Part shown: piece after piece, positions 1 to 64,000 of the stretch
Position numbering within the stretch: position 1 is the first letter of the stretch
Layout: every line of letters begins with the position of its first letter
Assembly (NCBI GenBank): GCA_017524805.1
Contig: JAFXUX010000006.1
Span: forward strand, 389 to 64,388
Length of the DNA: 64,000 bases
From: Candidatus Methanomethylophilaceae archaeon
GTDB taxonomy: Archaea > Thermoplasmatota > Thermoplasmata > Methanomassiliicoccales > Methanomethylophilaceae
Direction: 5' to 3'
Translations under genes and position numbers: made by a program
Notes under the pieces: generated by a model
What the model saw: only the letters and a program-made list of their open reading frames with translations
Told to the model about the DNA's origin: nothing
Databases searched by the model: none

Positions 1-1756
1 TCCCGATAGATGCTACCCCGCTCAGATCGATTCTAGCCAGGGACCCGCAACCGCTGAAGGCGCTGGTGCCCAGGGTGTCGGCGCCGCCGAGGTAGACACG
101 CGCAAGGGACGAGCAGCCGAAGAAGGCGTACGCACCGACGGAGGCCGCCCCGTTCAGGGTGACTGAGGCGAGGTTCCTGCAGCCGTGGAAGGCGCTGCGG
201 CCGACGTCCACCTCGGAGATGACCGAAACGATGGAACCGTTCCTGAGGAAGGCTTTGGGCGCGATAGATGTGACGGTCCATTCGAACCCGAGGTAGCTGA
301 TGGACGCGGGGACGAAGATATCGGTCGCATCATCGTCGGCCAGGCGGACCGCGGTCACTATCTTGGAATCCGCCCCGTTGTCGGTGATCCTGTACTTCAC
401 GCCGTCGTAGACGATGGTCCCCCTGAGGGGCGGGACGTACAGCTCGAGACAGGTGGCATCCACACCGGTGAACTTGTGGCCGGCCATGGCTTCAGCGCTG
501 AAATCCATCGGCCTTTCGTTCTCATCATAGAATTTGCACCAGAGGAAAGCGCCATTGCCGACTTCCGCAAAATCCGCTCCGAACACGATGTAATTGAGGC
601 CGTAGCATTCCGCGAAGGCGTAATCGCCTATGGACACTTCGCCGCCCGAGAACTTGAGGCACTCGAGCGCGCTCCCGCAGAATGCGTAGTACCCGATGGT
701 GGTGACGGTGGCGGGGATCTTCACGTAACGGAAGTAATTGCCGTCCGGGTCCTCATCCTTCAGGGCGGCCCCGGCGCCCATGAAAGCCATGGAGGCTATC
801 TCCTTGACGGTCGCCGGTATGTCGAGGCTCCGCTTCGAGGCGGGAAATTTCAGGAGCGTGGATACCTCTTTGTCGTACAGGACCCCGTCCACGGACGCGA
901 AAGTCGCGTTATCTCCGAGCACCTCTATAGACGCGAGATATGGGCTGTCAAGGGCGTTGTCCCCGATGGACGCGACCTCGGTGCCGATCGAGACCGACAC
1001 TAAGGTTTCGCATTCCGCAAAGGCCCGTTCGACGATCGCCACGGGAAAATATTCCGCGCCGCCGTGCTTGACCATCGAGGGCACGGACAGGGATTCGGGG
1101 GCCCCCACGAAGCCTGCCGCGGATACCCGGCCATCGGAGAGCAGGGCGTAGCACACGGAGCCCTCCGAGAACCCCTCGTACAGATTGCCGTCGCCGGGGC
1201 CCACGAACTCCCTGCCGCGGAGGGTTTCGGCGTCTCCATCAAGCTCCGTGTCCCCGCTGTAGAAGGATGCGTCAAATGCACCGGGCCCGAGATAATCCAG
1301 AGAATCGGAGAACCTGACGTATGCCAGATTTTCGCAGTGACTGAATGCATTATCCCCCACGCTTGTCGCCGAGGGCAGGCTCACCTCCCTCAGGAACTCG
1401 CAGCCCCAGAAGGCGTCTTCCCCCACGCTTGTCGCCGAGGGCAGGCTCACCTCCCTCAGGAACTCGCAGCCCCAGAAGACGCCTTCCCCCACGGACTCCA
1501 CCGTCCAGTCGATACCGTCGTAGCTCACCGTGCCTTCCACGCGCACGGGGCTGCCGACGTAACCTATGATATTAACGTATTGTCTATGTTCGTCAGTCAC
1601 TTCGTATACGATGTCGTCCGCGGTGAATTCTTCACCTTCCGACAGCGCCTCGGCGCCGTCCGAGAGGGAGACGGCCGCGAGAGCTATCATCGCCAATGCG
1701 ATGGCGGCGGCCGATGCCCACTGAAAGCCGCGCAGATTCAATGTGCTTGGTTCCAT
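1..1756 (-). CDS. BspA-like leucine-rich-repeat surface protein (3' end runs off the window)
   Basis: Absent from the ORF track because no stop lies inside the window. My translation from the ATG at 1756 gives MEPSTLNLRGFQWASAAAIALAMIALAAVS (signal/TM segment). Many ~22-23 aa units of the type FxGCxxLxxVxLPxSxxxIGxxAF follow. The long + strand ORFs 185..1003 and 1064..1882 are antisense shadows. Confidence 0.75.
   Translation of the reverse strand, partial: MEPSTLNLRGFQWASAAAIALAMIALAAVSLSDGAEALSEGEEFTADDIVYEVTDEHRQYVNIIGYVGSPVRVEGTVSYDGIDWTVESVGEGVFWGCEFLREVSLPSATSVGEDAFWGCEFLREVSLPSATSVGDNAFSHCENLAYVRFSDSLDYLGPGAFDASFYSGDTELDGDAETLRGREFVGPGDGNLYEGFSEGSVCYALLSDGRVSAAGFVGAPESLSVPSMVKHGGAEYFPVAIVERAFAECETLVSVSIGTEVASIGDNALDSPYLASIEVLGDNATFASVDGVLYDKEVSTLLKFPASKRSLDIPATVKEIASMAFMGAGAALKDEDPDGNYFRYVKIPATVTTIGYYAFCGSALECLKFSGGEVSIGDYAFAECYGLNYIVFGADFAEVGNGAFLWCKFYDENERPMDFSAEAMAGHKFTGVDATCLELYVPPLRGTIVYDGVKYRITDNGADSKIVTAVRLADDDATDIFVPASISYLGFEWTVTSIAPKAFLRNGSIVSVISEVDVGRSAFHGCRNLASVTLNGAASVGAYAFFGCSSLARVYLGGADTLGTSAFSGCGSLARIDLSGVASIG
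1354..1485 (-). repeat. 66-bp tandem duplication (2 copies, 2 mismatches) inside the LRR gene
   Basis: cccccacgcttgtcgccgagggcaggctcacctccctcaggaactcgcagccccagaag... occurs at 1354..1419 and again at 1420..1485. This equals one 22-aa LRR unit (EDAFWGCEFLREVSLPSATSVG) duplicated in frame. Confidence 0.9.
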
Positions 1757-2080
1757 GGGAAAAGCCACGCCTCGCGCGCACTTAATGGTAGCGATGATCC
1801 CCGGCCCGACGGATCTGCCGCCCGGCACCGAACCGCGGCGGGGGTTCAGCGGATGCTGTGTCCGTCCGTGTTAACAGGTTAAAGGAATTAACAGAATTAC
1901 GTTTGAAACATCATTCTATTATTTCAGTCCCTTCCGTGCGGGCCGCTCCCCACCGGCGTCGACCGCGGAAAGAACGCGGTTCCCCACCGAACATCGAACG
2001 GGGCCCGCATCGTCCCTGTTGGGAGCGGGAACCTTCGATCTGGCTCGGGCGGCATCAAAAACGGGCAGGCCCACCTGTTA

Positions 2081-2242
2081 CTAATGCCATTCAAAATACT
2101 TTCCCCATTTCTTACAATCAGGATGATGAGGTTCCTTCCTTGCAAAGCCCATTGACTTGCCGTCCTTCATACCGGCGGCCACATCCTTGAAAGACGACTT
2201 GCTGACGCGCTTAATTCTTCGAGTTTCCGCCCTATATGCCAT
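2081..2242 (-). CDS. small hypothetical protein (53 aa) ending in tandem stops TAG-TAA
   Basis: Below the ORF-track size cutoff. My translation is MAYRAETRRIKRVSKSSFKDVAAGMKDGKSMGFARKEPHHPDCKKWGKYFEWH followed by tag taa (plus-strand tta cta at 2078..2083). It starts 14 nt after the stop of the 107-aa ORF upstream. Confidence 0.35.
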   Translation of the reverse strand: MAYRAETRRIKRVSKSSFKDVAAGMKDGKSMGFARKEPHHPDCKKWGKYFEWH

Positions 2243-2255: not shown

Positions 2256-2579
2256 TCATCGCCAGTCTATTCTTTTATTGGGGTCCGGATACATGGGCCC
2301 GTACCCGTGGAAAAAATCCCCTCTGGCCTCGACCTCCGCAGCCTTCGCCTCGGCGGACGCTGCAGCCGCCAGAACGTCGTCCTCGGAGATCAAATATGCC
2401 TCCGCCAGGAACGCGACGGTCTCGTTCCTCTCCCTGCGGATGTACGCCCTCGCCTCCAGGAACGTGCATCCGGCGATCTCCTGCAGCAGCCACAAACGGG
2501 TACAGTACCTGACCTTCCTCTCCCTCTCCTTCTTGTTCATCGCTTCCTCCTCGGAACCATTGGTATCCGTTGCCCTCAC
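2256..2579 (-). CDS. hypothetical protein (107 aa)
   Basis: ORF-track entry with a GTG start and protein-like composition (…KVRYCTRLWLLQEIAGCTFLEARAYIRRERNETVAFLAEAYLISEDDVL…). I recognise no family. Confidence 0.45.
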   Translation of the reverse strand: MRATDTNGSEEEAMNKKERERKVRYCTRLWLLQEIAGCTFLEARAYIRRERNETVAFLAEAYLISEDDVLAAAASAEAKAAEVEARGDFFHGYGPMYPDPNKRIDWR

Positions 2580-2883
2580 AAAGATTCGGCTCGATCTTGC
2601 CGATGTATTTGGTGAGATCGACTCCGGACAGCTAAGACTTGAAGTATTCGAACCATGCCCCGTATTCGTCTAAGTCCATACCGAAAATCTCTTCATAGAA
2701 CCAGGGCCAGTCGGCTCTCAGCTAGTCGCACCCTACGAACGTCGCCTCCTCGAACGTGAGACCAACCTTCTCCTGCAGAGCCCAGAGAAGAAGAGCATAC
2801 TCCTCCTGGTAATCGAATATAAAACAGTCCGAATGCTCGGGTCTAAGAATCGGATCGTGCCTGATCTCGCCCACTATCCTCAA
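2580..2883 (-). pseudogene. fragmented or recoded coding remnant with two in-frame TAG codons
   Basis: Minus-strand frame from TTG at 2883 reads LRIVGEIRHDPILRPEHSDCFIFDYQEEYALLLWALQEKVGLTFEEATFVGCD-TAG(2722..2724)-LRADWPWFYEEIFGMDLDEYGAWFEYFKS-TAG(2632..2634)-LSGVDLTKYIGKIEPNL. It is protein-like across both TAGs. It then runs out of frame relative to ORF 2256..2579. Confidence 0.35.
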
Positions 2884-4510: not shown

Positions 4511-6433
4511 TCATGACAAGCGTTCCAATTCCTCTGCGGCCTCCTCATTGCCGTTCTCTGCGGATTCCGAATACCACCTCTTCGCTTCCTCCAGGGATTT
4601 CGGGACTCCCTTCCCTTGCTCGAAGAAGCGCCCTATATGAAGCTGAGCCAGCGCATTGCCACCTTCCGCTGCCTTCAGATACCATTCCGCCGCCTTCTCA
4701 TAGGATTTGTCCGCTGCCATCCCGTTCTCGTACATATAACCGAGATTGTTTTGAGCCGAGAGATGGCCTTGGTCTGCCGCTTCGGAGAACCATCTGAAGG
4801 CTTCCGCATCGGATTTCGGCACACCCTTCCCATCCACGAACATCAGACCGAGACAGAATTGCGAATGCGGATCTCCGAGCTCAGCCCCTTTCCTATACCA
4901 TTCCGCCGCCTTGATATCGGAATGGCCCGGCCACTCCTCATCCTCATAGATGAGACCCAGTTCGTTGGAGGCGTCCAGCATCCTGCCTTCGAACGCTTTC
5001 TCCAGCAGAGGAATCGCCCTCTCATAGGATTGCTCGACGCCTTCCCCGAGGCGGAGAAGCCTCCCCAGATTGTAGCAGGACCTGATGTGCCCCTGGGATA
5101 CGGCCTTCTCGTAGAACTCGGCAGCTTTCTCGCAGGATTGCTCGACGCCCTCGCCCTCCTCATACATAGAACCCAGATTGTTCTGGCAGTATGGGTCTCC
5201 GAGCTCAGCCCCTTTCCGATACCATTCTGCAGCCCTCTCGTAAGATTTCTCGATGCCTTCCCCGTTGAAAAGCGAGACGGCCAGATTGAAGCAGGCATCC
5301 GCATCCCCGCCTTCTGCGGCCCTCTCATACCACTTGACAGCCTCCTCGCAGGACTTTTCGACGCCCTCGCCCCTCTCGTACATCCCGCCCAGAAGATACT
5401 GGGAACGCGGATCGCCTTGATCGGCGGCCTTGGAATACAATTCGATGGCTTTTGCGTAGGACCTCTCCACGCCTTCCCCATCCCTGTACATGGAAGCGAG
5501 ATTGCACTGCGCCCTGATATTGCCCTGATCGGCTGCCCTGGAAAACCAGATCAGCGCATCATCGTAGGACTGATCCACGCCCAGGCCGTGCTGATACATC
5601 ATTCCGACGTTGTTCGCCGCGTCTGCATCCCCATCATCAGCGGCCATTTCGAACAGCTCGAAAGCCTTCTCGTAAGATTTCTCCGTCCCGAGCCCGCTGA
5701 AATATAAGAGCCCCAGGTTGTTCATAGCCCGGGGGTATTTCGTGGCCGCCGCTTCTGAGTACAGCTCGATAGCTCTCTCGTAGGACTGCTCCACGCCCAG
5801 GCCGTGGTCATAAAGATAGCCAAGATCGCACTGCGCCACGTCCAGCCCCATTTCGGCGGCTTTCCCGTAGTATTCGGCGGCCTTCGCATAGGATTGTTCG
5901 GTGCCCTTCCCGTTCTCGTAAAGATTGGCCAAGCAGCGGTATCCCATGGCGTTGCCTCTGTCTCCGGCTTTCTTATACAGCTCCAGCGCTTTCCGGAAGG
6001 ACTCCTCCGTCCCTTCCTTCTCATGCCTCAATGCCATCATCTACAGACAGAACGCGTTCCCATACTCTGCGCCCAAAGCGTAGAGGTCCATGCCGTCGTA
6101 AAACCCGTCCCCGACAATCCCCAATGTCTGGCAGAGATTTCCGGCGCGTTCCATGGCGAACCCGTCGCCCGCATCGGCAGCCAGACCGTACCACCTTATA
6201 GCTTCGATCAGACTGGGACGGACCCCCAAGCCATGCTCGAATGCCAGCCCCATCATGCATTGCGCGTCGCGGTCCCCATCTCCGGACGCCTCGGCCAAAA
6301 AATCCAACGTTTCCTCGTCCGTGCCGAAGAAACCTGACCATTCGCCCATCCTGGCCGCCAAACGGGACGACATCTCCGAATCCTTCCCGCCGCCTTCCAG
6401 CAGCCACCCCACCACCGCGGAAACATCTTTCAT
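4511..6433 (-). CDS. Sel1-like repeat (SLR/TPR-like) protein, single reading frame interrupted by one TAG at 6041..6043
   Basis: ORFs 6041..6433 (130 aa) and 4511..6040 (509 aa) are contiguous and in the same frame. Both consist of 36-aa units of the type AxxWYxKAAxxGxxxAQxxLGxMYxxGxGVExS. The junction reads GNAFCL-TAG-MMALRHEKEGTEES. Confidence 0.75.
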
Positions 6434-11209: not shown

Positions 11210-11292
11210 CTGAATTACGGACGGACATTTCCTTCTGATATTTGTAGGTAAGCGAAGATCGATTCAGAACCGTGGCGACTGGCCCGGTAACG

Positions 11293-11766
11293 TCAGCTGT
11301 TCTCGCGGATATCCGCCACATATGGCTCATAAATGCTCCCGGCAGATATTTCATCGGCGCGTTCGGCGACCTTCGACATCACACTCAAGAAAACCTTCAG
11401 ATCTTCCTCAGGTATCCCTGTGAAAAGCCTTTCGTTCAGATCGTCGACGATCTCCCCCGCTTTCTTCGAAACAACCTCCCCCGAAGGGGTCAAACTTATC
11501 GACCACACTTTTCCGGTGCTGTCATTCCTGACGTATCCGCAGCGTATGAGCTCGCGGACGACGATGGAAACCCTGGATTTGTCTAGTGGGATGCATTCGC
11601 ACAGGCTCTTCTGGGATATGCATGGATGCTCCCTGATCGCCAGCAAAAACGGTATGTAATAGTACTTGAAGCCGCATTCCTCGGCCTTCTCTGAGCTGAC
11701 GGTACGCACGCACCTGGACATTATGTCCAAGAATTGGTGAAATTGAGCAAGCGAATAATCATCCAT
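11293..11766 (-). CDS. MarR-family transcriptional regulator
   Basis: Only the C-terminal 157 aa of ORF 11293..12915 are protein-like (MDDYSLAQFHQFLDIMSRC…ISQKSLCECIPLDKSRVSIVVRELIRCGYVRN, a wHTH). The remainder is antisense to ilvC. It is divergent from ilvC. Confidence 0.8.
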   Translation of the reverse strand: MDDYSLAQFHQFLDIMSRCVRTVSSEKAEECGFKYYYIPFLLAIREHPCISQKSLCECIPLDKSRVSIVVRELIRCGYVRNDSTGKVWSISLTPSGEVVSKKAGEIVDDLNERLFTGIPEEDLKVFLSVMSKVAERADEISAGSIYEPYVADIRENS

Positions 11767-11850
11767 AATTCGTTGAAGATGTATGAGTTTATAATAGCAA
11801 CCATCAATCTTTATGTGGGGATTGTCTAATACCGTCCTCAGGTGCGAAAT

Positions 11851-12855: not shown

Positions 12856-13440
12856 ATGAGCGAGATATCCATAAGGTGCGTCCATGCCGGGGAATTCCGC
12901 GGCGATCTCGACCATTCGGACATATCGAATGCCATATGGCTCTCCCCGCCCGTCACCCTTGAGACGAACATGCTGGGGGGCATGATGTACTGCGAATTGC
13001 CCCTGGATGCCGTCCTGCCCAAGGAAAACCGCGTTACCAAATTGGAGATCGGGGACATCGCCTATTGGCCCGGCCCCGGCGCATTCTGCGTCTTCTTCGG
13101 CCCGACTCCCCTGAGCGGGGAGGATGGCAAACCTGTCGCCCCTTACCCCGTCATAAAGATCGGAAAGATGATCGGGGACTGCTCCGGAATGGATCGCATC
13201 GGAGACAGGCAGAGGATAGTCCTGTCGCCTGTGCTGCGACCGCCGGGAACCCCATTTCAGAAGAAATCATCCAGCTTTTTGACTTTGGCGGATGGCTTCG
13301 AAGCCTTCGCCTTGTTCCCCTTCTCCTTCGGCGCGAAAGAGAAGAGATCGGCCTGCTGGTTCCCTGTCATAAGGTCCTTCTCAGTCCATCCGAAGACTTC
13401 TGTTATACGGGACGCTGTCTGGGCGATGCGCTCGGCATAA
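12856..13440 (+). CDS. cyclophilin-like (TM1367/PF04126-like) protein with a ~70-aa C-terminal extension
   Basis: EIGDIAYWPGPGAFCVFFGPTPLSGEDGKPVAPYPVIKIGKMIGD matches the cyclophilin-like fold family. The ORF continues 184 nt into the convergent polB 3' end before a TAA. Confidence 0.6.
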   Translation: MSEISIRCVHAGEFRGDLDHSDISNAIWLSPPVTLETNMLGGMMYCELPLDAVLPKENRVTKLEIGDIAYWPGPGAFCVFFGPTPLSGEDGKPVAPYPVIKIGKMIGDCSGMDRIGDRQRIVLSPVLRPPGTPFQKKSSSFLTLADGFEAFALFPFSFGAKEKRSACWFPVIRSFSVHPKTSVIRDAVWAMRSA

Positions 13441-32810: not shown

Positions 32811-32882
32811 GGCACAACCTTAATACTATCGTTTCAACGCATCAAATATTCAAATTCGTGAAGAACCGCGATTTCATAAAGG

Positions 32883-38511: not shown

Positions 38512-40321
38512 ATTAACGAGTTCCCAACGAGCCGTATAGTCAGTTGACAGGATTCTTTTTAGGCCTCCCCCTAGGCCTCTTAGGCTTCTCTTCGGTGCCC
38601 GTTTTCTTAGGTCTTCCACGCTTCTTCGGAGCGACCGGTTCGGGGCCTTTGGACAATCCCAGCTTCTCCATGGTCTCATGGACATTGGGAAGCGTATGCA
38701 CCCAAGCGCCGTCCGAACGGGACGGCGCCTCGGGTCCATCCACCCTCCGCCATGCGGATGACAGGTCGTCCATGAGGTCCCTGTACGAGGCCTCCTCCAG
38801 GAGCTTCGTCTCGGTGAACCGCCTGATTATCCTGCATGTGATTATCGTCGCGATGCTGTTGATGAACTCGCTGCCCCGCACGGAGAAATCGCCCTGGACC
38901 CTGATGTCGTCCAGGCCCTCGTCATTCTTGTAATAGTTGAAGACCAGCTCCAGGAGCCATCTGTCGTCGTAGCATCTGTACGCCGTCTCGCAGTCCATAT
39001 CGAGATCGGATTCGAACACGATCGTCCCGAAGTTCCTGTCCTTCTTCGAATATTTCTGATAATCGAAGGACTTCTGGGTGCTCCTCCTGCCCAGGTAGGT
39101 CATCTCCTCCAGGGATGCCTTGTACGGGTCCTTGAAGGCATAGAGGAACATGCCGCCCTGTATGCGGCGCTTCCTGTAGAGCACCTTATGCTCGGTGTTC
39201 TCCAGTATTCCCTCGAAATCCAGCATGTCGTTGTTCGTTATGCGGATGTCGTTGCGCTTTATAGGAGTGAGGAAATGGAGCTGGGGGCGGTCCCCCAGCT
39301 CCTCCCTTATCCTGCTGGGAGGGAACCCCTTGTCGGCTATGATGATGCCTTTCCGGATGTCGTTGTCGCGGATGAAATCCGAGTATGCGACGGCGTCTAT
39401 GCAGTTACCCGGGAACACCTCGGCACATATGGGCTCCATCCTCTCGACGTCATAGGCATAGATGACTGAAACGTCCTTGGTGCCCTTCACCCTCGACTTG
39501 TATGAAAAATCCGAAAGGTCGTTGACGGTGCTGTTATCAGTCTTCAGTGTCCCGTCGATGGCCACATGATGCGTCTCGGCCACTGCCTTGATGCGTCTGG
39601 AATAGAACTCCTTGCGCTTGGGCCCGTTCATGCCCAGCAGCTGATGGAGCCCGCATACGCTGTTCTTGGAGATCGCCAGGTCGGGGTAGAATACGCTGGC
39701 GAACGTCCTCCTGTAATGGGTGGACAGGCGATTATCGGTCACATGCGGTATCGCCACCCGCAGGGCGGCGATGGCCATGATCTGATATCCCGCATCGATA
39801 CCGTAGACGTCCAGGAGGTCGTTAAGGATGTCATCGGATACCGACCTTACCAATGCCAGTGCACCGAACGACAGTTCCTGTGGCTCAGATCCGGAGAGAT
39901 CCGATACGGGAACGAACCTCCCGTTGTGGATGTATCCGATCACCTCTCCGTTGACAGGCTGAGGGTTGTGGCCGGGAACGTAGATGACCTTCTTGCGCGA
40001 CCTCACGGCGTACCTCTTCCTTCCGTCGCCGCCATTGTCGACGACGACGGTGTTGCTCGGTCTCGGGACCTTCCTGATTTCCTCCGGCACTCCCATAAAA
40101 TCCCCCTAAATATAGTATTTATTCTATATTTCAGTACTATATATTAACATTTTTGCCTGTCATTATTCAAAGATTACGGACCCCGTCCATCACTTCGATT
40201 GCCGGAAGAATCCTGAAAAGGCCGACAGGATCGAACAATAAACGTTACTTCAGCCCAAAACAGGCCCGAAATACACTGATTCTCAGAGGGATATAGTACG
40301 GCTCGTTGGGAACTCGTTAAT
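38512..40321 (-). mobile_element. intact insertion sequence, IS4/IS1634-type (~1.81 kb)
   Basis: 25-bp perfect terminal inverted repeats (38512..38536 attaacgagttcccaacgagccgta, 40297..40321 reverse complement) bracket a single DDE transposase ORF. Confidence 0.88.
38540..40096 (-). CDS. DDE transposase (IS4 family, IS1634-like) with two C-terminal AT-hooks
   Basis: D (HVAIDGT), D (IIADKGF), and Y-2-R-3-E-6-K signature YDDRWLLELVFNYYK. The C-terminus is KKRGRPKKTGTEEKPKRPRGRPKKNP. Confidence 0.9.
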   Translation of the reverse strand: MGVPEEIRKVPRPSNTVVVDNGGDGRKRYAVRSRKKVIYVPGHNPQPVNGEVIGYIHNGRFVPVSDLSGSEPQELSFGALALVRSVSDDILNDLLDVYGIDAGYQIMAIAALRVAIPHVTDNRLSTHYRRTFASVFYPDLAISKNSVCGLHQLLGMNGPKRKEFYSRRIKAVAETHHVAIDGTLKTDNSTVNDLSDFSYKSRVKGTKDVSVIYAYDVERMEPICAEVFPGNCIDAVAYSDFIRDNDIRKGIIIADKGFPPSRIREELGDRPQLHFLTPIKRNDIRITNNDMLDFEGILENTEHKVLYRKRRIQGGMFLYAFKDPYKASLEEMTYLGRRSTQKSFDYQKYSKKDRNFGTIVFESDLDMDCETAYRCYDDRWLLELVFNYYKNDEGLDDIRVQGDFSVRGSEFINSIATIITCRIIRRFTETKLLEEASYRDLMDDLSSAWRRVDGPEAPSRSDGAWVHTLPNVHETMEKLGLSKGPEPVAPKKRGRPKKTGTEEKPKRPRGRPKKNPVN

Positions 40322-40496
40322 CGATCATTCTGTTCATATCATCGGTCGTATCCGCACTGACGTAAAGCCACCCTTCGCCAACATCCATCTCGATCCGACT
40401 GCTACGGTCTGCGGTTGATTCGTATTTCAGCCCGATGATATCATTCACATCGAAAAGTGCATTCATTAGAGATGCCTCATTTCTTTTCCGATTCAT
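40317..40496 (-). CDS. small ORF (59 aa) whose stop codon lies inside the IS terminal repeat
   Basis: My translation is MNRKRNEASLMNALFDVNDIIGLKYESTADRSSRIEMDVGEGWLYVSADTTDDMNRMID-taa. It is below the ORF-track cutoff. Confidence 0.3.
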   Translation of the reverse strand: MNRKRNEASLMNALFDVNDIIGLKYESTADRSSRIEMDVGEGWLYVSADTTDDMNRMID

Positions 40497-44804: not shown

Positions 44805-46349
44805 ATGACTGAATGGCATGGCGGTCGTTCTCGGATGGATGCGGAAATCAAAAAAGCTATGCCCGGGCTGTGGCTGCTGTCATTCAGCACCTTTGTGGTA
44901 TGCGTGCCTGCGGCGTTCACGCAGATTCTCTCGCTGGATCTCATGATGGATTTGAACTCGTTCCCCACCGAGGGGTACGCATGGACGTTCCCGGCTTTCG
45001 TGGGCGGAGAATGCGCCTCCATGGCCCTTTTCGCCGGCCTGATGGACAGCGTGGGCCGCAAGAAACCGTATCTGATCGGTTCGGTGCTGTTCATACTGAG
45101 TTCGATAGCCTGCGCCATGAGCTCCGATATGTCCGAGTTCATTCTGTTCCGCGTGATAGAAGGGTTCGGGGCCGGGATCATAATCATCGCGTGCATAGCG
45201 CAGATTTACTACGACGTGCCGAACCCAAAGCTCCGCTACATCGCCAACGGGATAATGTCCCTGGGATTCGGGCTGGGGATGCTGGTGGGGGTCTTCCTTG
45301 GGAAAGCGATAATAGACGGCATGGGCTGGGAGCTCACGTTCTGGGCGATGGCGGCGCTCCAAGCTATCGTCACCTATCCATCGCTGCTGACCCTGTCCAA
45401 AGGCGAGCCCAGCAGCATGAAACCGGACTACCCAGGCGCCATCATTCTCATGTTCCTCTCTGGGTTCTTCGTGTTCTTCCTTCAGAAGCTGTATCTCGAC
45501 TGGGGCCCGGTCAGCCCGGAAGGCCTCATGGGTACGGCGCTCATCGTCATGCTGATCGTCGCGCTGGCAGTCGCTGAATCTCTGAATCCGAATTCCATCG
45601 CACACCGCAAGCTGGACGACAAAAAGCTCACCGCCGCGTGCCTGATATTCATAATAATTCTGGGGGCGCTAGACATGGCCGCCGTGGGGTCGATGATAAA
45701 GATCTCGTTCTTCACATATCAGATGTCCATCCTCGAAGTTGCCCCCTATTTCACGATAATGGTTTTGGGGGCCGCGACCACCGCCATAACCATCTCCAAG
45801 AAGATCGACAAGACGGGGCATCTCGTCTGGCTCCTGCTGAGCGCCGTGCTCACGCCCATAGCGCTGCTGTCGATGCTGCTGGTCAAAGCGGACGACCCCT
45901 CATACATATTCGCCATCCATCTGTTCCTGCTCGGCCTCGCCATAGGGTGTCTGGTATCCATGCTTAATGCAACGATCCAGAACCGCACCGACGAAAGCAA
46001 CAACAGCGCCATCATGGGATTCGCCATACTCATCCGCACGGCGGCCCTTTGGCTGGGATACAACTTCTATCAATTCATCACGGACCAATACATGCTGAAC
46101 AAGCTGAGCCCGTACGTCGAGCATTGGAACGAGATCTTCCCGTTCGATATCCCCGCGGACAGCATGCTGGCCAACCTTCTGATCACCCCGATGAAAGAGC
46201 TACTGAAGCTATTGCCCGGACTGACGGACGCCATCGCGGATATCTACGCCGAAGGGATGGCTCAGGCGCTCATGCTGGGAGCCGTCATATTCGTGGCCGT
46301 TGCGATCCCCACCGCGGCCATCCTCGTAGGCAGGAGGAAAACATTATGA
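44805..46349 (+). CDS. MFS transporter (DHA2-like)
   Basis: 514 aa, hydrophobic, GLMDSVGRKKPYL motif. The stop makes an ATGA overlap with the start of the giant ORF. Confidence 0.8.
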   Translation: MTEWHGGRSRMDAEIKKAMPGLWLLSFSTFVVCVPAAFTQILSLDLMMDLNSFPTEGYAWTFPAFVGGECASMALFAGLMDSVGRKKPYLIGSVLFILSSIACAMSSDMSEFILFRVIEGFGAGIIIIACIAQIYYDVPNPKLRYIANGIMSLGFGLGMLVGVFLGKAIIDGMGWELTFWAMAALQAIVTYPSLLTLSKGEPSSMKPDYPGAIILMFLSGFFVFFLQKLYLDWGPVSPEGLMGTALIVMLIVALAVAESLNPNSIAHRKLDDKKLTAACLIFIIILGALDMAAVGSMIKISFFTYQMSILEVAPYFTIMVLGAATTAITISKKIDKTGHLVWLLLSAVLTPIALLSMLLVKADDPSYIFAIHLFLLGLAIGCLVSMLNATIQNRTDESNNSAIMGFAILIRTAALWLGYNFYQFITDQYMLNKLSPYVEHWNEIFPFDIPADSMLANLLITPMKELLKLLPGLTDAIADIYAEGMAQALMLGAVIFVAVAIPTAAILVGRRKTL

Positions 46350-49300
46350 AAGCAATCCACGCGGCCTTCCTGGCGATGCTCGCCATAACCATTCTGGCCT
46401 CTGCCTTGGCATACGATCATATCGACGCGGAAACGCTGCCGACCGGCGACGTCGTGATTTCCGGCGACGTCTATCTCGACGGCGACGTGCGCATCGAAAG
46501 CGGCTCCGACGTCATCATCATGGACGGGGCCAGCATCGACATCTCGGATCATACCGTGACTATCGGCCAGGGATCCAAAGCCCTTGTGCTGGGGTCGGCG
46601 TCAGTCTCGAGCTCGGGCGGCAGCATCATACTGGAAAGCGGGGTTCCGTTATCCATACTCGACATCCCCCTGTTCCGCATGGAAGGGGACATAACAGTCA
46701 CCTTCGATGGGACCATATCGCTGAGCCTGGATCCTCTGCTGGGAACGCTGAGATTGGGATTCCAGCCGTCCGGCTCCGACAAATCCATCCATCTGTCGCA
46801 AGGCAGCAGAACCTTGGCGCTGGAGAAACCGGGCCTGACAGCGAAGATGGGCATCGGAAACGTGGACATAACGGTCGGATTCTCTAAGATCGTCCTTACC
46901 GAGGAGAAGAGAGACGGCAATTCCTTGGTGAGCAGGACCGCGACGACCATAACATCAAGCAACCCGGAAGATTCCTTGGAGTTCGTCCTCTACCTGATAG
47001 ACGAAGGATACGGCGACTTCTATCTCAAAGACATCAACATCAGGAGCGTGGAGATGTCCACATACCACGCCGAAAGCAGGATCACCACATCCTGGTCGCT
47101 GTCCGGATTCCATCACCTGAGCGTCTCCCTGAGCGGAAGCGGCATAATTTCCGTGAGTTCGGCGATAGACAAAGCGACATTCGAAAGGAGCAGAGACGGC
47201 ATCGTCGAAAGCAGAACAGTTCTGAACTCAATAAACTGGGATGTCGACCTGGACCTGATCAGACTCTTCCAGATGCTGGAAGCCGTCATATTCGGGGGAG
47301 ACAAGATCGAAGTCTCTGACATGATCAAGGATGTGACGGTCGCCATAAAGTCCATTTCGATAGACGACCGCGAGAAAGACATCAGAAAGAATCTGACCGG
47401 CTTCCGCTTCGAACTGCAGAGGGACGCTCCCGCGGAATTCCGCAACGTCATCGTATGGAAGGACGGGGACACATCCTATAGGCTGGCTTTCTCCGGGGTC
47501 ATCCTCAACTCTATCGGCATAGGAACCGATTTCATGATGGACCTGGACGTCTCGGTGGCGGATGCCAGATTGGATGTCGTGCCTTCCCAAGGACCAAAGA
47601 CGGCGGCGACTGCGACGGACCTGGATTTTGAGATAAACGATCTGGATCTGCCCGGGCTTCTCTCTGTCCTATCCAGAACGGGAGAGATCGATATCCAGCA
47701 GATTCTGGACCATTGCCTGCGCTTGCGCCTGTCCGCATCCTCGATGGCATACTCCAAGGACGGCCAAACGATCGCCGCCCGCGGCATCAGCATGTCCCTC
47801 GAAAAGGATGTCAGAGGGCGCAGCACATTTGCTCTCGGTTTCAGCAGCATAAAAGGCTCCGCCATTCTGGAAGACGGCGGATACCTCAGCATGGACATCG
47901 GGAAGACGGCGGCATCCCTAACCACCGACGGCTCCCTCGCAGAATACATAGACGCGCTCAGATCTGTCCCGCACATATCCGGAGACTCGGACCTTGCCAT
48001 ACAGATAAAAACGGAATCGGTAAGAATCGACTTCGAAGATGCCGGCGGATCAGCCTCGGTCTCGAGCAGACCAGTAACCGCGAACCCTTCCGCCATCTCT
48101 CTGGATCTGTCGGTCAGGCATACCGCGTACAAGGACATAACCGGCCTGAGCGGCAGCTTTTTGGCCGTCGGGCACGAGATCACTGCGAAAGAGCACGATG
48201 CCGAGAAAGGCTTGGACCTGGTCGCCATCATAACCGATCCCGACCTCACCCTGAACGGAGCAGACCTCGGTTCTCTGGCCGCGATCCGCGAGGAAACAGG
48301 GAAGATAAGCGTGCTGGACATCGCCGACAACATCGACAGCGCCGAACTCCTCGCCCGCTACGCAGATGTGAGAGCCGATGGCAGCCGCATCAAACTCGCA
48401 TCCCCTGAAATCAGAGCCGGAGCGATCAGAAGCTATTCGGTCGGCATAAGCGCGGATTCTATGTCCGCTGACGCCTCTGCGGCGGGGCTCTCCATTAAAT
48501 CTGGATCGGCCTCGCTTTCATTTTCGTCCAGCATCTCGTTCAGCACCCTTCAGAAGGCTTTCTCCGACGGATTCAGATTCGATTCCGACGTCTCCATCTC
48601 GTTCGAAGGGACCGTGACCGACGCCGAAGCTAAATACGCCGGCGATTCCCTCACCGCAGTTATATCCAACAGCGGGTCGCCTACGTTGGAGATCGATCTG
48701 TCTTATGAGCGCTCGGAAAGATGGGGCATATCCGCCCTTACTGCCGAACTGTATGCCAATGGATACGGGATCGAAGCCGATGGAAGCGACAAAAACGGAG
48801 AAAGATTCGCCGTATCCCTGCAGGATCCGGAAGCCGCCGTTAAGGATCTGGATGTCGATGCGCTCTCCGCCGCGAAAGAGGCCGGAGAGATAGATGTCTT
48901 CGACGTTCTGGACAATACCGGTAGGGCCGACATCGACGCATCATCCGCGAGCATGAATTACAGAGGCTATGAGATAACCGTCAGATCGTTCGGCATCGAT
49001 ACGATCTCTTCGAACGTGTGCAGCGCATCCCTAGCGGCCAGCTCTCTGTCCGCTCTCGCGCCTGCTAAGACAGGAAACGTGAGCATCAAATCGGGGGCTT
49101 TGGATTTGAGAGTCTCATCCAACATGTCCTTCGCCGGGATCCGCGACGCCCTCCTCGAAGGCAAAGAATTCGAGCCGGGAGCCAAGATCGCGGCGGAAGC
49201 CAGCTTTGAAAGCCTCAACCTCAGCTATTCCGCCGACTTTGCCATTTCCATATCGGGCACGAGCGAAAAACCGACCTTGACTTTAGACGCCACCGCCGCC

Positions 49301-51952
49301 CGCCTGACGGATTCCTCTGAGACTCTGTCGGACATGGAAATCGTAGCAACAGGCTATCGCATAATAGTTGACTCGGCTGGATCCGATGGGACCGCGATGA
49401 ACGCGCGCATAGACGACCCCTCTGCCTCAGTCAAAGGCCTGGATATCGATGCGGTGCGCTCCGAATTCGAAGAGAGCGGGAAACTTACCTTGGACATGCT
49501 GGATCATTGCGAGTCGGCGCGCATCCAAGCCGCAAGCCTTTCCGTCGATGCGAAAGGAGAAAGGACTTTCCAGGCAGATGCCGCCGCGCCCTCGCTTATC
49601 GTCGGGACCGGCGCGGAAAGCAGCGCCCGCTTTGAATCAGGGACTTTGGAGATTTCAGCATCCTTGGATGAAGGTAAATTGAGCATGAACTCTTCCGCGA
49701 TGGAAGCGGCCGCATCCTCTAACCTGTCATTCGCAGACATCATGGCCATCATCGGCGGCGACCTGAAACCCGGCTCGGATTCGGAAGCTGCTGTGAGCTT
49801 ATCCATGACGGACCTATCTGCAGACTATGCGGACGAGAAAATCAAAATATCACTCGGCAGAAGCGCATCGGCCTCAGCAACGATGACGCTGGACGCGACC
49901 GTCAGGGGCGAGGATGATTCCGGCGACATCTTCCTGTGGGCAGACCTTTCAGCCAAAGGGTACGCCATGAGGTTCGACAGCTCCGGCGTTTCCTACGGCA
50001 AAGTCCCCGTCAAAGGCGACAAACTGCATATTGAATCCCGCGACATCAACCTCTCTGCGTCAGAGCTGAATCTGAGCGAGCTCCGCAGGATATATGACGA
50101 GACTGATAAGATCAAAATCCAGCAGATCATTGACAGCTGCTCCTCGCTGAGCCTATCTGCCGAGCATGCCGAATTGGAATGGGATGGGGACGGGAAATCC
50201 GACGCCATCATGGAAAAGAGCGAAGCGAACGCCTCCAAGGATGGGAACGGAATTTCGACTGTCACCATGGGCGTCGAAAAAGCGGCGGCGTCCATTCCCT
50301 TGGAGGGGCGCATGGCGGACATCCAATCGAACAGGACCGAGATATCGCTGTCTTCGAGCATCCCGATCTCCGAGTTGGTGGAGCTAATCATCGACGGGCT
50401 GGATTTCAAGAAGGATACGTCCGTAAGAATATCCGCCGAGACGGATGGAATCCGGATTGCGGCCGAAATGGAGAAGGGAGATGTGTCCTTGGAATTGTCT
50501 CCGAAAGAGAATCCCGGCGACGCGATAGCTAAGGCGGAGATCGCTCTGGATCACTCGGAATCTTCCGGCAGCACGACGATAGACGGGAAGATCGATGCGC
50601 TCGGATACAGAACAACAATAAATATGGTCCTGAGCCAGAAGTTCTCCGGGAAGCTCTCGGACCTGCCGTTCCCTGTCGGGGAAGGATCGGCCATCGCGAT
50701 GGGATTCGACGATCTGAGCGTGGATTTGGCCGGATTCGATGCTGCAACCGCTTACGAGCTGCTGTCCGAATACGGATCTCTGACCGCCCAACAGATCTTG
50801 GACTGCTGCGATCGGATGGGAATCGGAGCCTCGGACGCGTCCATCGACATCAACGGCGACGGCGAAATCGAACTGGCAACCAGAAATTCCCAGGCCACAT
50901 TGAGCAAGAACAAAGGGCAGAACATGATTTCGTTCAATTTCGACTGGCTGAAGACCTCGATGGAGATGAGCGAAGCAGAGATCAGAGCCCAGCTTGGCGC
51001 CTCGGAGATCCTTCTCTTCACTGAAGGATCGATCTCGGAATGCATAGACGCGCTATTCAGCGGCGTCAACTTCTCCTCCGACACGCGCGCAGAACTGCAC
51101 ATATCCAACGAGGCCGCCGTGATCGAATGCCTCAAGGAAGAGGACTGCCTGACGATGACCAACGCGAATCTGCGCGAGAACTCTCCGAAATACGTTACCG
51201 TAGTGATGTCTCTGGAATACTCGAGCTACAGAGACCAGACCACATTGGTGGGGAAGATCTCGTCCATAGGACACTCCGTAACGTTGAAAGACAGGTCTGC
51301 CGTCAACGACGAGGGCGGGATTCTGGACCTGTCCTTCAGGACCGATGAGGTCTCGGGCGGATTCGAAATGGTATATGGAGATGGCATCGGATTCTCCGCG
51401 AACCTCTGCATGCCTTGGAAAGCGGAATTCGGGTATTACGACGTGCAGTTCCAGATGGAAAGCGGCGAATCCGTGGTCTCTTTGACCCGCGGCAATCTGG
51501 CCGTCGACGGATATGACCATAGGAAGCAAGGCCTTCTTGCCGTCGTTCCCGCGATAAAGAGCAGCAGCTTCGCCTTCGAGAACAGGGTTCTCATGTCATC
51601 CGATTCGATGCGCGTCCTCAGAAGCGGAACCGGCGAAGTGATCAGCTCGTACGGAGACGCGGAGCTCGACGTGGAGAAGGTCAAAGCGGATCTGAGAAGG
51701 GGAGATACCCTGAACGTGATCTTGGAGAGACTGGACATCCGCATAACCGATCAGGACGGAAAAGTCACCGAAAGGTCGCTGGAAAGGCTTGACGTAACCA
51801 CGGACCAAAGCGGAGCTGAACCAGAGAAGAGCTGGGTGGAAAAGAACTCCCTCCTTCTGGCCGCGGTCTTCATAGCGGCGTCGATCGCCATGATAGCAGC
51901 TTTGATCATCATCCGCATGAAAAACCGTGAACCGCCGGAGACAGAGGGATGA
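46346..51952 (+). CDS. giant (1868 aa) acidic, S/A/D-rich surface protein with signal peptide, six ~200-aa repeats and a C-terminal TM anchor
   Basis: The real start is MKAIHAAFLAMLAITILASALA, preceded by aggagga. The upstream part of ORF 46049..51952 overlaps the MFS gene out of frame. The C-terminus is LLLAAVFIAASIAMIAALIIIRMKNRE. Confidence 0.8.
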   Translation: MKAIHAAFLAMLAITILASALAYDHIDAETLPTGDVVISGDVYLDGDVRIESGSDVIIMDGASIDISDHTVTIGQGSKALVLGSASVSSSGGSIILESGVPLSILDIPLFRMEGDITVTFDGTISLSLDPLLGTLRLGFQPSGSDKSIHLSQGSRTLALEKPGLTAKMGIGNVDITVGFSKIVLTEEKRDGNSLVSRTATTITSSNPEDSLEFVLYLIDEGYGDFYLKDINIRSVEMSTYHAESRITTSWSLSGFHHLSVSLSGSGIISVSSAIDKATFERSRDGIVESRTVLNSINWDVDLDLIRLFQMLEAVIFGGDKIEVSDMIKDVTVAIKSISIDDREKDIRKNLTGFRFELQRDAPAEFRNVIVWKDGDTSYRLAFSGVILNSIGIGTDFMMDLDVSVADARLDVVPSQGPKTAATATDLDFEINDLDLPGLLSVLSRTGEIDIQQILDHCLRLRLSASSMAYSKDGQTIAARGISMSLEKDVRGRSTFALGFSSIKGSAILEDGGYLSMDIGKTAASLTTDGSLAEYIDALRSVPHISGDSDLAIQIKTESVRIDFEDAGGSASVSSRPVTANPSAISLDLSVRHTAYKDITGLSGSFLAVGHEITAKEHDAEKGLDLVAIITDPDLTLNGADLGSLAAIREETGKISVLDIADNIDSAELLARYADVRADGSRIKLASPEIRAGAIRSYSVGISADSMSADASAAGLSIKSGSASLSFSSSISFSTLQKAFSDGFRFDSDVSISFEGTVTDAEAKYAGDSLTAVISNSGSPTLEIDLSYERSERWGISALTAELYANGYGIEADGSDKNGERFAVSLQDPEAAVKDLDVDALSAAKEAGEIDVFDVLDNTGRADIDASSASMNYRGYEITVRSFGIDTISSNVCSASLAASSLSALAPAKTGNVSIKSGALDLRVSSNMSFAGIRDALLEGKEFEPGAKIAAEASFESLNLSYSADFAISISGTSEKPTLTLDATAARLTDSSETLSDMEIVATGYRIIVDSAGSDGTAMNARIDDPSASVKGLDIDAVRSEFEESGKLTLDMLDHCESARIQAASLSVDAKGERTFQADAAAPSLIVGTGAESSARFESGTLEISASLDEGKLSMNSSAMEAAASSNLSFADIMAIIGGDLKPGSDSEAAVSLSMTDLSADYADEKIKISLGRSASASATMTLDATVRGEDDSGDIFLWADLSAKGYAMRFDSSGVSYGKVPVKGDKLHIESRDINLSASELNLSELRRIYDETDKIKIQQIIDSCSSLSLSAEHAELEWDGDGKSDAIMEKSEANASKDGNGISTVTMGVEKAAASIPLEGRMADIQSNRTEISLSSSIPISELVELIIDGLDFKKDTSVRISAETDGIRIAAEMEKGDVSLELSPKENPGDAIAKAEIALDHSESSGSTTIDGKIDALGYRTTINMVLSQKFSGKLSDLPFPVGEGSAIAMGFDDLSVDLAGFDAATAYELLSEYGSLTAQQILDCCDRMGIGASDASIDINGDGEIELATRNSQATLSKNKGQNMISFNFDWLKTSMEMSEAEIRAQLGASEILLFTEGSISECIDALFSGVNFSSDTRAELHISNEAAVIECLKEEDCLTMTNANLRENSPKYVTVVMSLEYSSYRDQTTLVGKISSIGHSVTLKDRSAVNDEGGILDLSFRTDEVSGGFEMVYGDGIGFSANLCMPWKAEFGYYDVQFQMESGESVVSLTRGNLAVDGYDHRKQGLLAVVPAIKSSSFAFENRVLMSSDSMRVLRSGTGEVISSYGDAELDVEKVKADLRRGDTLNVILERLDIRITDQDGKVTERSLERLDVTTDQSGAEPEKSWVEKNSLLLAAVFIAASIAMIAALIIIRMKNREPPETEG
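47681..50810 (+). repeat. six divergent ~585-670-nt coding repeats inside the giant ORF
   Basis: A recurring anchor motif starts at 47681, 48299, 48884, 49478, 50105 and 50774. The six instances are GEIDIQQILDHC, GKISVLDIADNI, GEIDVFDVLDNT, GKLTLDMLDHC, DKIKIQQIIDSC and GSLTAQQILDCC. Each is preceded by a DLD/ELN-h-x-x-h segment. Confidence 0.75.
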
Positions 51953-53881: not shown

Positions 53882-55147
53882 TTGATCGACCGCCGCGATA
53901 ACGGTCTGATCAAAGTCATAACAGGGGTCCGCCGCTGCGGAAAAACGTACCTCGTCGAGATACTGTTCAGAGATTGGCTGATTGAAAATGGCGTGGATCC
54001 CAAAAACATCATATTCATATCGCTTGAAACGGGCCTTAATGCCCATCTCAGAAATCCCCTTACGCTTTCAGAGCACATTCACGACGCGATTGGCGGCTCC
54101 GACTCCAGAAAATACGTGATTATAGACGAGATACAGCTTTGCGCCAGCGTGGACAACCCATACCTTCCCCCAGAATCCCGCACTATAGAGAACATGATGA
54201 CGTTCTATGACGTCGTCTTAGGTCTGAGAGAAAAATGCGACATTTATGTCACCGGAAGCAATTCAAAAATGCTTTCCAAAGATGTCCTCTCCAGTTTCAG
54301 GGGCAGAACGGACGAAATACCCATAATTCCCCTGTCATTCTCTGAATTCCACTCTGCCCTCAGAGGGGACGTCAGGTCGGATTGGATGGAATGCCTCTAC
54401 CATGGAGGAATGCCTGGAACACTGCTATATCATGATGCCCCGTCCAAAAACAGGTACCTATCAAGTCTGTTCAATGAGATCTACCTCAAAGATATTCAGG
54501 AACGCTATGGAATCCATGGCATCGACGATCTGTCAGCGATCGTTGATGTTCTCGCCTCATCATCCGGAGGGTTGGTTAACCCGCAGAAAATCGCTGACTC
54601 CTTCCGGGACAGGAGCGTCAGCAGGAACACCGTGGCCAATTATATAGAGCATCTAGAGGACTCTTTCCTGATATCCGGATCCATGCGCTTCGATATCAGA
54701 GGGAGGAGGCACATAAACGGCCTAAAAAAGTATTATTTCACGGACGTGGGGCTGATGAACGCCAGACTCAATTTCAGGGAGATGTCGCGTGCAAAGCTCA
54801 TCGAAACCGTGGTGCATAACGAATTCCTGCTTCGTGGATGCAACGTAGATGTCCGAAGAATAGATGTCAGAAGAAGAAACGAAGAGGGAAAATCTGCGAT
54901 CATATCTCTGGAAATAGATTTCGTCGTCAACAGATCGTTCGATAGGGCTTACATACAAGCGGCCATGGGAGTGGATGACCCAGGAAAAATGGAGCAAGAG
55001 ACCAGATCGCTGAAGGCCATCAAGGATGGCTTCGCAAAGATCCTGCTGATAGATTCCGACGTCCCAGAGCATGTCACCGAGGATGGCATCAGGGTGATGT
55101 CCATCATAGATTTCCTGCTCGACGAGGGCTCCCTGAGATTCAACTGA
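53882..55147 (+). CDS. AAA ATPase with DUF4143-type C-terminus (COG1373-like), N-terminus interrupted by TAA
   Basis: VITGVRRCGKTYL (Walker A), VIIDEIQ (Walker B). The frame is continuous with ATG 53849 (MRIERPIHLQ) except for a taa at 53879..53881. A TTG follows directly at 53882. Confidence 0.78.
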   Translation: MIDRRDNGLIKVITGVRRCGKTYLVEILFRDWLIENGVDPKNIIFISLETGLNAHLRNPLTLSEHIHDAIGGSDSRKYVIIDEIQLCASVDNPYLPPESRTIENMMTFYDVVLGLREKCDIYVTGSNSKMLSKDVLSSFRGRTDEIPIIPLSFSEFHSALRGDVRSDWMECLYHGGMPGTLLYHDAPSKNRYLSSLFNEIYLKDIQERYGIHGIDDLSAIVDVLASSSGGLVNPQKIADSFRDRSVSRNTVANYIEHLEDSFLISGSMRFDIRGRRHINGLKKYYFTDVGLMNARLNFREMSRAKLIETVVHNEFLLRGCNVDVRRIDVRRRNEEGKSAIISLEIDFVVNRSFDRAYIQAAMGVDDPGKMEQETRSLKAIKDGFAKILLIDSDVPEHVTEDGIRVMSIIDFLLDEGSLRFN

Positions 55148-55720: not shown

Positions 55721-58039
<2,319 letters not shown>

Positions 58040-62788: not shown

Positions 62789-64000
62789 TCGAACGGATAC
62801 TCCCTTTCGGAGGGGACATGAAGGAACGGCTTAGCGTCTTTCCCGACGTAATCCTTCACGATCTGGCCGTCCCCGACGAGGACGTATTTGTATATCATCA
62901 GGCCCTCCATCCCCACCGGGCCGCGGGAGTGGATCTTGTTGGTGCTTATCCCGACCTCGGCTCCCTTCCCGAACCTGAACCCATCGGCGAAACGGGTGGA
63001 TGCGTTCACGAACACGTCCGCGGAATCGACTTTCTTGGCGAAGATAGACGCCTTCACCATGTTGGAGGTGATTATCGCGTCCGTGTGATGGGACCCGTGG
63101 GCGTTGATGAAATCTATGGCTTCGGATATCGAATCCACCACTTTCACCGATATTATCAGATCCCCGTATTCGGTGTCCCAATCCTCGTCGGATGCCGGAA
63201 CGGCGGACGGCAGAATCCTGAGCGTCTTCTCGTCCCCTCTGATCTCCACGCCGGCATCGGAGAACGCCTTCCCCATCTTGGGCAGGAACTTTTCAGCTAT
63301 GGCGGAATCCACGAGGAGAGTCTCGGCCGCGTTGCATACGGCCGGGTATTGCGCCTTGGAATCCAGAGCGACCTTCACGGCCATCCCCATGTCGCACTCG
63401 GAATCGACGTACACATGGCATATCCCTGCGGCATGGCCGAGCACCGGGATCTTCGTGTTCGATTGGATATGGCGTACGAAGGCGTTGGACCCGCGGGGAA
63501 TCAGCAGGTCGATGTATTCATGCAGGCCCAGAATGGAATCAATGTCGGACCTCGATTCCATCAGGACGAACGCCTCCTCGGGAACCCCGGCGGAAGCTGC
63601 GGCGCCCCTCAGTATCTCGAAGAGCGAGCGTATGGACTCCAAAGCCTCGCGGCCGCCTTTGAACGCGACAGAGTTGCCGGATTTGAGGCACAGAGACATG
63701 ATCTGCGGGACCACGTCCGGACGGGACTCGAATATCACTCCCAGCATTCCTATGGGGCAGCGGATCTGGTACAGGGTCAGACCTTCGTCAAGGTCCAGAG
63801 AGGACATGACCTCTCCCACCGGATCCTTCAGCTTTATGACGTCCCTTATCCCGGCAATCATGCCGTCTATCTTGGGGCCGTCTATCTTCAGCCTCTTCAG
63901 CATGGGCCCGGTGATCTCTCCGCGCTCCAGCATGGCCTCTGCGGCCGCCATGTCCTTGGAATTCGCCGCAAGGATGGCTTCCCTGTTTGAATCCAGAGCC
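62785..64000 (-). CDS. proA: gamma-glutamyl phosphate reductase (5' end beyond the window)
   Basis: …FESRPDVVPQIMSLCLKSGNSVAFKGG…, CNAAETLLV. The frame stays open to the window edge (…LDSNREAILAANSKDMAAAEAML). ATGA overlap with proB. Confidence 0.9.
   Translation of the reverse strand, partial: ALDSNREAILAANSKDMAAAEAMLERGEITGPMLKRLKIDGPKIDGMIAGIRDVIKLKDPVGEVMSSLDLDEGLTLYQIRCPIGMLGVIFESRPDVVPQIMSLCLKSGNSVAFKGGREALESIRSLFEILRGAAASAGVPEEAFVLMESRSDIDSILGLHEYIDLLIPRGSNAFVRHIQSNTKIPVLGHAAGICHVYVDSECDMGMAVKVALDSKAQYPAVCNAAETLLVDSAIAEKFLPKMGKAFSDAGVEIRGDEKTLRILPSAVPASDEDWDTEYGDLIISVKVVDSISEAIDFINAHGSHHTDAIITSNMVKASIFAKKVDSADVFVNASTRFADGFRFGKGAEVGISTNKIHSRGPVGMEGLMIYKYVLVGDGQIVKDYVGKDAKPFLHVPSEREYPFE

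Follow-up and report, generated by a model that had tools for sequence, protein, structure and literature searches.

TAG codons and stop codons of the window

The sequence considered here is a window of 64,000 nt, the whole stretch of DNA that was analysed, whose proteins (NCBI MBR4503557 to MBR4503608, locus tags IKP20_01015 to IKP20_01250) belong to a metagenome-assembled genome (MAG) titled 'Candidatus Methanomethylophilaceae archaeon', and its subject is the codon TAG, which closes very few genes of this window and lies inside the reading frames of two others. We called genes independently with an iteratively trained codon-usage model and ran Pfam scans on nearly every candidate gene. The gene content was that of archaeal housekeeping, with ribosomal proteins L21e, L15e and S15, rpoF, aIF-1A, fibrillarin, Pus10, RIO1, KsgA, archease, a family B DNA polymerase and Kae1, and also included transporters, an insertion sequence (IS) element and a BspA-type leucine-rich-repeat protein. 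The window strain was present in several ruminant-gut metagenomes, rumen sample SAMN15830043 being one example. Assemblies L001-L006 and L015-L020, at least 99.8% identical to the window, confirm its TAGs and give no evolutionary depth, which came only from GCA_016292055.1, a strain from another project with 99.39% identity, and from 80 GTDB species representatives. Three genes are central to the analysis:

57056..58039, minus strand: kae1 (tRNA t6A synthase, TsaD/Kae1 family), 327 codons with a TGA end and one in-frame TAG at codon 119 (57685..57683)
4511..6433, minus strand: gene for a Sel1-repeat protein, 640 codons with a TGA end and one in-frame TAG at codon 131 (6043..6041)
24552..25202, plus strand: HD-domain gene (Pfam HD match) with a TAG end (25200..25202), the only well-supported TAG-terminated gene in the window

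A first-pass annotation, made from the sequence and its open reading frames (ORFs), had reported TAG codons inside kae1 and the Sel1 gene, and both were confirmed. In kae1, the Pfam TsaD profile matched on either side of the codon (positions 11-98 before it and 104-264 after it), which lies six residues after the metal-binding HxxxH motif. Among 120 Kae1 homologs the flanks, HIEIGRA-x-TGC-x-DP, were almost invariant, and the TAG column was variable, holding T, L, Q or M. TAG was found at this site in none of the 80 species representatives (0/80) and the three closest species (94, 90 and 88% protein identity) had CAG there, so that the kae1 TAG is a recent one-step transition; as judged from this comparison the change from CAG to TAG is very recent, being absent at 94% protein identity. 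The codon was present in the window, in metagenome assemblies L001 and L002 and in GCA_016292055.1, whose kae1 differs by two synonymous changes and one Asn-to-Ser change, all of them downstream of the TAG. The gene calls that accompany the metagenome contigs split kae1 in two.

In the Sel1 gene, Pfam Sel1 repeats were found on both sides of the TAG, and three homologs with 45-51% identity spanned the junction in a gapless alignment, with L, L and R in the TAG column. This codon was present in four further assemblies (L015-L018), and in the NCBI annotation the 130 N-terminal residues that precede the TAG form a protein of their own, MBR4503559.1. Neither kae1 nor the Sel1 gene carries any lesion other than its single TAG, and in each the TAG stands at a position that is variable among homologs in a gene that is otherwise intact. 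The 100 nt following the TAGs of kae1, Sel1 and HD folded no more stably than shuffled sequence (z of 0.91, -1.12 and -0.17, respectively), and no match to the Rfam PYLIS families was found in the window. The lack of a stable fold after the kae1 or Sel1 TAG is in line with the literature.

A different kind of gene interruption was seen in the same species, in an AAA_14/DUF4143 ATPase gene (53882..55147, plus strand) that is intact in the window, where it encodes 421 aa, and that was compared with its counterparts in L001-L006 and L101. Six other assemblies have an extra A at window position 54724, which shifts the frame, and GCA_016292055.1 has a GGA-to-TGA nonsense change, so the gene seems to have been inactivated independently in different strains. 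Since this decay is polymorphic and occurred by frameshift or TGA, real decay in the species looks unlike the TAG cases.

Turning to termination, 47 of the 55 coding sequences whose stop lies inside the window ended in TGA, six in TAA and two in TAG. The first-pass annotation had described TGA as dominant, TAA as occasional and TAG as nearly never a stop, and the six TAA and two TAG sites that it listed were exactly those returned by our independent gene calls. TAA closes the cyclophilin-like gene (13438), ksgA (16868), rpoF (18246), a phosphohexomutase-like gene (42747), an AAA_14 ATPase gene (59410) and a short ORF whose stop is supplied by the IS element (40317); TAG closes the HD gene (25200, plus strand) and a 53-aa ORF (2242..2081, minus strand) that ends in TAG TAA (2083..2078). 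Only two TAGs stood at sense positions among the 18,550 codons of the census, and the gaps between window genes held no further TAG-terminated ORF with a coding signal, except the stretch 2722..2883. When the linked contig that carries the genes for pyrrolysine (Pyl) decoding, L011, was added, the 72 genes of the combined sample ended in TGA (62), TAA (8) or TAG (2, or 2.8%).

Composition was taken into account in reading these counts. With a G+C content of 55%, the window is depleted in the TA dinucleotide (observed/expected 0.64) and holds the TAG trinucleotide at 0.41 of its expected count; on both strands together, TAG and TAA are about equally frequent (724 and 714). As a composition control, TAG made up 23% of the stop trinucleotides in intergenic DNA, and 7-49% of the stops in the off-frames of window genes. 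Base composition predicts ~20% TAG stops, versus the ~2-4% seen. The median share of TAG stops is 22% in archaea without Pyl and 4.1% in Pyl-encoding Methanomethylophilaceae (PMC12626013). The share in the window (2/55, or 3.6%) is below 5%, in a small sample; the probability of two or fewer among 55 is 1.6e-4 at an expectation of 22% (3.8e-6 for the 72 genes) and an unremarkable 0.61 at an expectation of 4.1%. A crude census of kae1 neighbourhoods in the 80 related species gave TGA 267, TAA 30 and TAG 11 (3.6% TAG). The depletion of TAG stops is real, and it is typical of Methanomethylophilaceae.

The pyrrolysine machinery of the genome

The PylS of this genome was searched for with the M. 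alvus PylRS, a query identical, residue for residue, to PDB chain 6jp2_A. The search identified MBR4504345.1 (locus tag IKP20_05190), a protein of 273 aa that is 63% identical to the query over its full length, and the IKP20 prefix that it has in common with the window proteins places pylS in the same MAG. Its contig, L011, was found in four metagenome samples, in each of which the window strain is present too, and all genes of L011 score as coding under the codon model of the window. ARAGORN detected a tRNA-Pyl with the anticodon CUA (cta) at L011 7824..7894, 6 nt upstream of pylS, and directly downstream of pylS lie genes with Radical_SAM, ATP-grasp_3 and PylD_N domains, as expected of pylB, pylC and pylD, which are identified here by precomputed Pfam domains only.

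The same contig holds corrinoid-protein genes and the methylamine methyltransferase genes mtmB, mtbB and mttB, each of them one frame with a single in-frame TAG, in the motifs GV*GPET, DGV*VGVGDP and AGN*TDAK, respectively; Rfam PYLIS_2 and PYLIS_3 matched at the TAGs of mtbB and mttB. These three genes end in TGA, and the other 14 complete genes of L011 end in TGA (12) or TAA (2), giving a contig total of TGA 15, TAA 2 and TAG 0. The tRNA-Pyl (CUA), pylS, pylBCD and the TAG-containing methyltransferase genes that the first-pass annotation had proposed to look for were all found on L011, and its proposal that the organism is a Pyl-decoding archaeon, of the Methanomassiliicoccales type, agrees with the lineage of the MAG, with the PylS and with the Pyl cluster on the linked contig. 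The window very probably derives from an uncultured methanogen of the ruminant gut, a member of Methanomethylophilaceae (order Methanomassiliicoccales), in which pyrrolysine is made and loaded onto an amber-suppressor tRNA-Pyl (CUA).

The HD gene, small TAG-containing frames and further features

If the HD TAG were read through, the frame would continue for 18 codons through A+T-rich spacer, in which a further TAG stands at 25236, and would close with a TAA at 25254..25256; this extension has a negative coding score. Most HD homologs are ~210-220 aa long and terminate no more than a few residues from query position ~210, so the HD TAG appears to lie at the natural end of the protein. It may either partly terminate translation or add a tolerated tail of 18 residues, and either fits. 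The remaining TAGs were found in two small features near the left end of the window:

2081..2242, minus strand: 53-aa ORF ending in TAG TAA (2083..2078), coding score -0.07 per codon
2632..2883, minus strand: ORF-like stretch with in-frame TAGs at 2724..2722 and 2634..2632

No Pfam or PHROGs match was obtained for the 53-aa ORF, which is doubtful as a gene. The first-pass annotation had spoken of tandem back-up stops behind TAG; the TAG TAA pair exists, and this single example rests on the doubtful ORF. It had also described two TAGs in a conserved remnant at 2580..2883, of which the TAGs were verified but the conservation was not supported; the stretch had no family match in Pfam or PHROGs, and its sequence was identical in five assemblies of the same strain. 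Up to the second TAG the coding scores there were weakly positive; beyond it they turned negative. The stretch may be a decaying gene, a live one or debris of a mobile element. Likewise, a gene of 94/107 aa and one of 325 aa had no Pfam or PHROGs match. Sorted by the categories of Kivenson et al., the TAG-containing genes of the sample comprise five of the internal kind (kae1, Sel1, mtmB, mtbB and mttB), one trivial extension (the doubtful 53-aa ORF), one extension of 18 codons (HD) and one doubtful long overlap (2883..2275).

Contigs L019 and L020 match the window perfectly, with breaks at 2062/2083 and 4883. The comparison also covered L015 1..1247, and genes for a phage-type integrase and a resolvase are found immediately outside the window on its left, upstream of the leucine-rich-repeat gene. 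The window segment 2062..4883, which contains the small genes without family match and the two-TAG stretch, may be a mobile piece of DNA or may vary from strain to strain. The leucine-rich-repeat gene itself (2..1756, minus strand) is cut by the left end of the window; its product, of BspA type and 669 aa long in the full contig, begins with what looks like a signal peptide, and the gene contains a tandem duplication of ~66 nt, 97% identical, with repeats at 1353..1427 and 1419..1493.

The IS element and its transposase gene are the following:

38512..40321, minus strand: IS element with perfect 25-nt inverted repeats (38512-38536 and 40297-40321)
38540..40096, minus strand: DDE transposase of the IS element, 518 aa, Pfam DDE_Tnp_1 match

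As had been proposed, the stop at 40317 is supplied by this element: the TAA (40319..40317) sits inside its right inverted repeat and closes a 59-aa ORF (40496..40317). Removal of the element in silico revealed no clear target-site duplication and restored no host ORF.

Elsewhere in the window, the cyclophilin-like gene (12856..13440, plus strand) and the family B DNA polymerase gene (13257.., minus strand) are convergent and overlap by 184 nt (13257..13440), in our calls as in the public gene calls for the same contig; both Pfam domains stop well short of the overlap, so that possibly only one of these C-terminal tails is real. A protein of 1868 aa (46346..51952, plus strand) has no Pfam match and is conserved in other strains, and a cluster of three of the few between-strain differences lies just upstream of its start, at 46272..46284. 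In two intergenic gaps longer than 500 nt (11210..11841 and 32370..32882), neither a convincing ORF nor an Rfam hit reaching the gathering score was found. Finally, bins titled as bacterial (Bacteroidaceae, Lachnospiraceae, Dialister hominis, Prevotella hominis, Faecalibacterium and others; L030, L032, L037, L038, L040, L090, L093 and L099) hold contigs with Methanomethylophilaceae-type Kae1 at 74-86% identity, which points to bins that are mislabelled or contaminated.

Decoding of TAG and its meaning for the lineage

Taken together, these data support the interpretation that TAG is decoded as Pyl beyond the methyltransferase genes, as a further case, from an uncultured lineage, of a phenomenon already published. 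Pyl-tRNA(CUA) would read UAG wherever it is present, with no special signal needed. As read-through of a terminator would be costly, selection would have replaced most TAG stops by TGA or TAA, and single-base changes that make TAG at tolerant sites, such as CAG to TAG in kae1, would act as missense and not as nonsense changes and could become fixed. kae1 is universally conserved and generally regarded as essential. With an in-frame TAG in such a gene, the Pyl machinery would have to be expressed continuously.

For Ca. M. alvus, Borrel et al. 2014 (PMC4153887) argued that TAG stops were replaced and tolerated new TAGs fixed; Kivenson et al. 2024 took the argument further, to complete reassignment of the codon (Genetic Code 34), which they proved by proteomics in M. 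alvi and M. burtonii (bioRxiv 10.1101/2024.09.30.615893). That TAG may be largely or wholly a sense codon had been suggested for the window as well; most of the TAG genes are of the internal kind, as in Code 34 genomes, but the HD TAG stands at a natural C-terminus. The preprint names three Thermoplasmatota genera, Methanomethylophilus, Methanogranum and Methanoplasma (bioRxiv 10.1101/2024.09.30.615893), and the idea that the present lineage, apparently outside all three, made the full switch to Genetic Code 34 independently strikes us as nearly evenly balanced, leaning slightly towards the negative.

Several points weigh against reading TAG as Pyl throughout. The two TAG columns (T/L/Q/M in kae1, L/L/R in Sel1) are far too few to tell which amino acid is inserted, and we only infer that the kae1 and Sel1 codons would be translated as Pyl. 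The window is tied to the Pyl cluster by binning (the locus-tag prefix), by co-occurrence in samples and by similar codon usage, and not by contiguous sequence, and the sample of ~83 kb (the 64-kb window and L011) is a small part of the genome. The HD TAG, at the end point of its relatives and followed by sequence that looks non-coding, is what would be expected of a working terminator. If both TAGs of the stretch 2632..2883, itself weak as a gene, were read through (2724 and 2634), the frame would not close before 2275 and would have an out-of-frame overlap of ~266 nt with a neighbour that scores well as coding (the 94-aa reading, with its ATG at 2540, of gene 2256..2579, 107 aa in the census), and out-of-frame overlaps of this kind, longer than 60 nt, count against reassignment in the Code 34 preprint (bioRxiv 10.1101/2024.09.30.615893).

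Some of these points would be accommodated if TAG were ambiguous, with Pyl-tRNA and aRF1 competing at every UAG, so that kae1 and Sel1 would each give full-length and truncated products and HD would mostly terminate. We consider this quite possible, though we do not favour it. It would account for an HD TAG at the natural C-terminus of its family, followed by A+T-rich spacer, and for the possible long-overlap case at 2883..2275, and there is a precedent in Methanosarcina acetivorans, where UAG is read as both stop and Pyl (PMC12626013). On the other hand, a gene that is single-copy and universally conserved would forfeit part of its product each time it is translated, five of the eight TAG-containing genes (counting mtmB, mtbB and mttB) are of the internal kind, and in the related M. 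alvi all detectable TAG-spanning peptides had Pyl (bioRxiv 10.1101/2024.09.30.615893). Ambiguous decoding refines the explanation by Pyl decoding, without contradicting it.

The two other readings that we weighed are both very improbable. If TAG were an ordinary stop, the interruptions of kae1 and Sel1 would have to be due to pseudogene formation, gene splitting or faulty assembly, and base composition would explain why TAG is scarce, as the depletion of TA (0.64) and TAG (0.41) and the two-protein NCBI annotation of Sel1 might suggest; yet TAA, about as depleted as TAG overall, closes three times as many genes, TAG keeps its 23% share of intergenic stop trinucleotides, the kae1 TAG is identical in all five assemblies of the species that were compared, one of them from a strain with differences at 0.6% of bases, neither gene has another lesion while genuine decay in the species takes the form of frameshifts and TGA, and the Pyl machinery is present. 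Sequencing error, pseudogene formation and pure composition were rejected as causes, given TAGs kept across assemblies, intact genes and the intergenic control.

Equally hard to credit is the idea that a different suppressor tRNA inserts a standard amino acid such as glutamine at TAG. Reassignments of TAG to standard amino acids occur in some phages and eukaryotes; to our knowledge, there is no such code in archaea. The descent of the kae1 TAG from CAG (Gln) in the three closest species would agree with glutamine, but CAG to TAG is simply a one-step transition route, the Sel1 column holds L/L/R, and the only tRNA found with a CUA anticodon is the tRNA-Pyl beside pylS. In M. alvi, searches found no standard amino acid at TAG (bioRxiv 10.1101/2024.09.30.615893).

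Decoding of TAG as Pyl places the organism close to several known systems. Like the reference Pyl-decoding member of its family, Candidatus Methanomethylophilus alvus (alvi) Mx1201, it has a similar G+C content, a PylS without N-terminal domain (273-277 aa here), a consistent order of tRNA-Pyl, pylS, pylB, pylC and pylD, very rare TAG stops (1.6% there, with 16 predicted extra Pyl proteins, PMC4153887; 2-4% here) and in-frame TAGs in housekeeping genes other than methyltransferases. Unlike M. alvus, which is not among the 80 closest Kae1 loci, it belongs to a different genus-level lineage, whose nearest named genomes by Kae1 locus (among those 80) are uncultured rumen MAGs, and its TAG-carrying genes differ, kae1 and Sel1 not being among the genes named in the accessible text of the two reports (PMC4153887; bioRxiv 10.1101/2024.09.30.615893). 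Pyl was detected by proteomics at TAG genome-wide in M. alvi (bioRxiv 10.1101/2024.09.30.615893), whereas the present organism is known from sequence alone.

As in the 'Group C' genomes of Genetic Code 34 (Kivenson et al. 2024), TAG frequency is low, most TAG genes are of 'Category 1' (internal, with homology on both sides) and TAG occurs in a universally conserved gene, a situation by which, in the authors' argument, constitutive expression of Pyl becomes locked in; the present case differs in its sample of ~83 kb and in having one Category 3 case (HD, 18 codons) and, at 2883..2275, a doubtful one of Category 4. Methanosarcina acetivorans (Shalvarjian et al. 2025, PMC12626013) is similar in its Pyl machinery, its few-percent TAG stops and its lack of need for an insertion element, and differs in phylum, in a PylS with N-terminal domain and in a dual reading of UAG that was demonstrated experimentally.

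The phenomenon being established already, the value of this instance is practical and incremental. Annotation under the standard code splits Sel1 and kae1, understating genome completeness and function, and such genomes merit re-annotation with TAG as Pyl. The PylS/tRNA-Pyl pair is a further candidate for genetic code expansion, of the class without the PylS N-terminal domain. Once fixed in a single-copy gene that is universally conserved, a TAG would be a clean marker that a species cannot switch off its Pyl machinery, and the one in kae1 bears on the dispute between full reassignment (Code 34) and ambiguous decoding: kae1, in which TAG must be read, and HD, in which it lies at the natural end, stand ~32 kb apart in the window and form a test pair for read-through versus termination. 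If the switch to Code 34 is true, the HD protein would be made with an 18-residue tail containing two Pyl, pyrrolysine would be obligatory in Kae1, a universally conserved tRNA-modification enzyme, and the species would be a natural snapshot of a conserved-gene TAG locking in constitutive Pyl expression.

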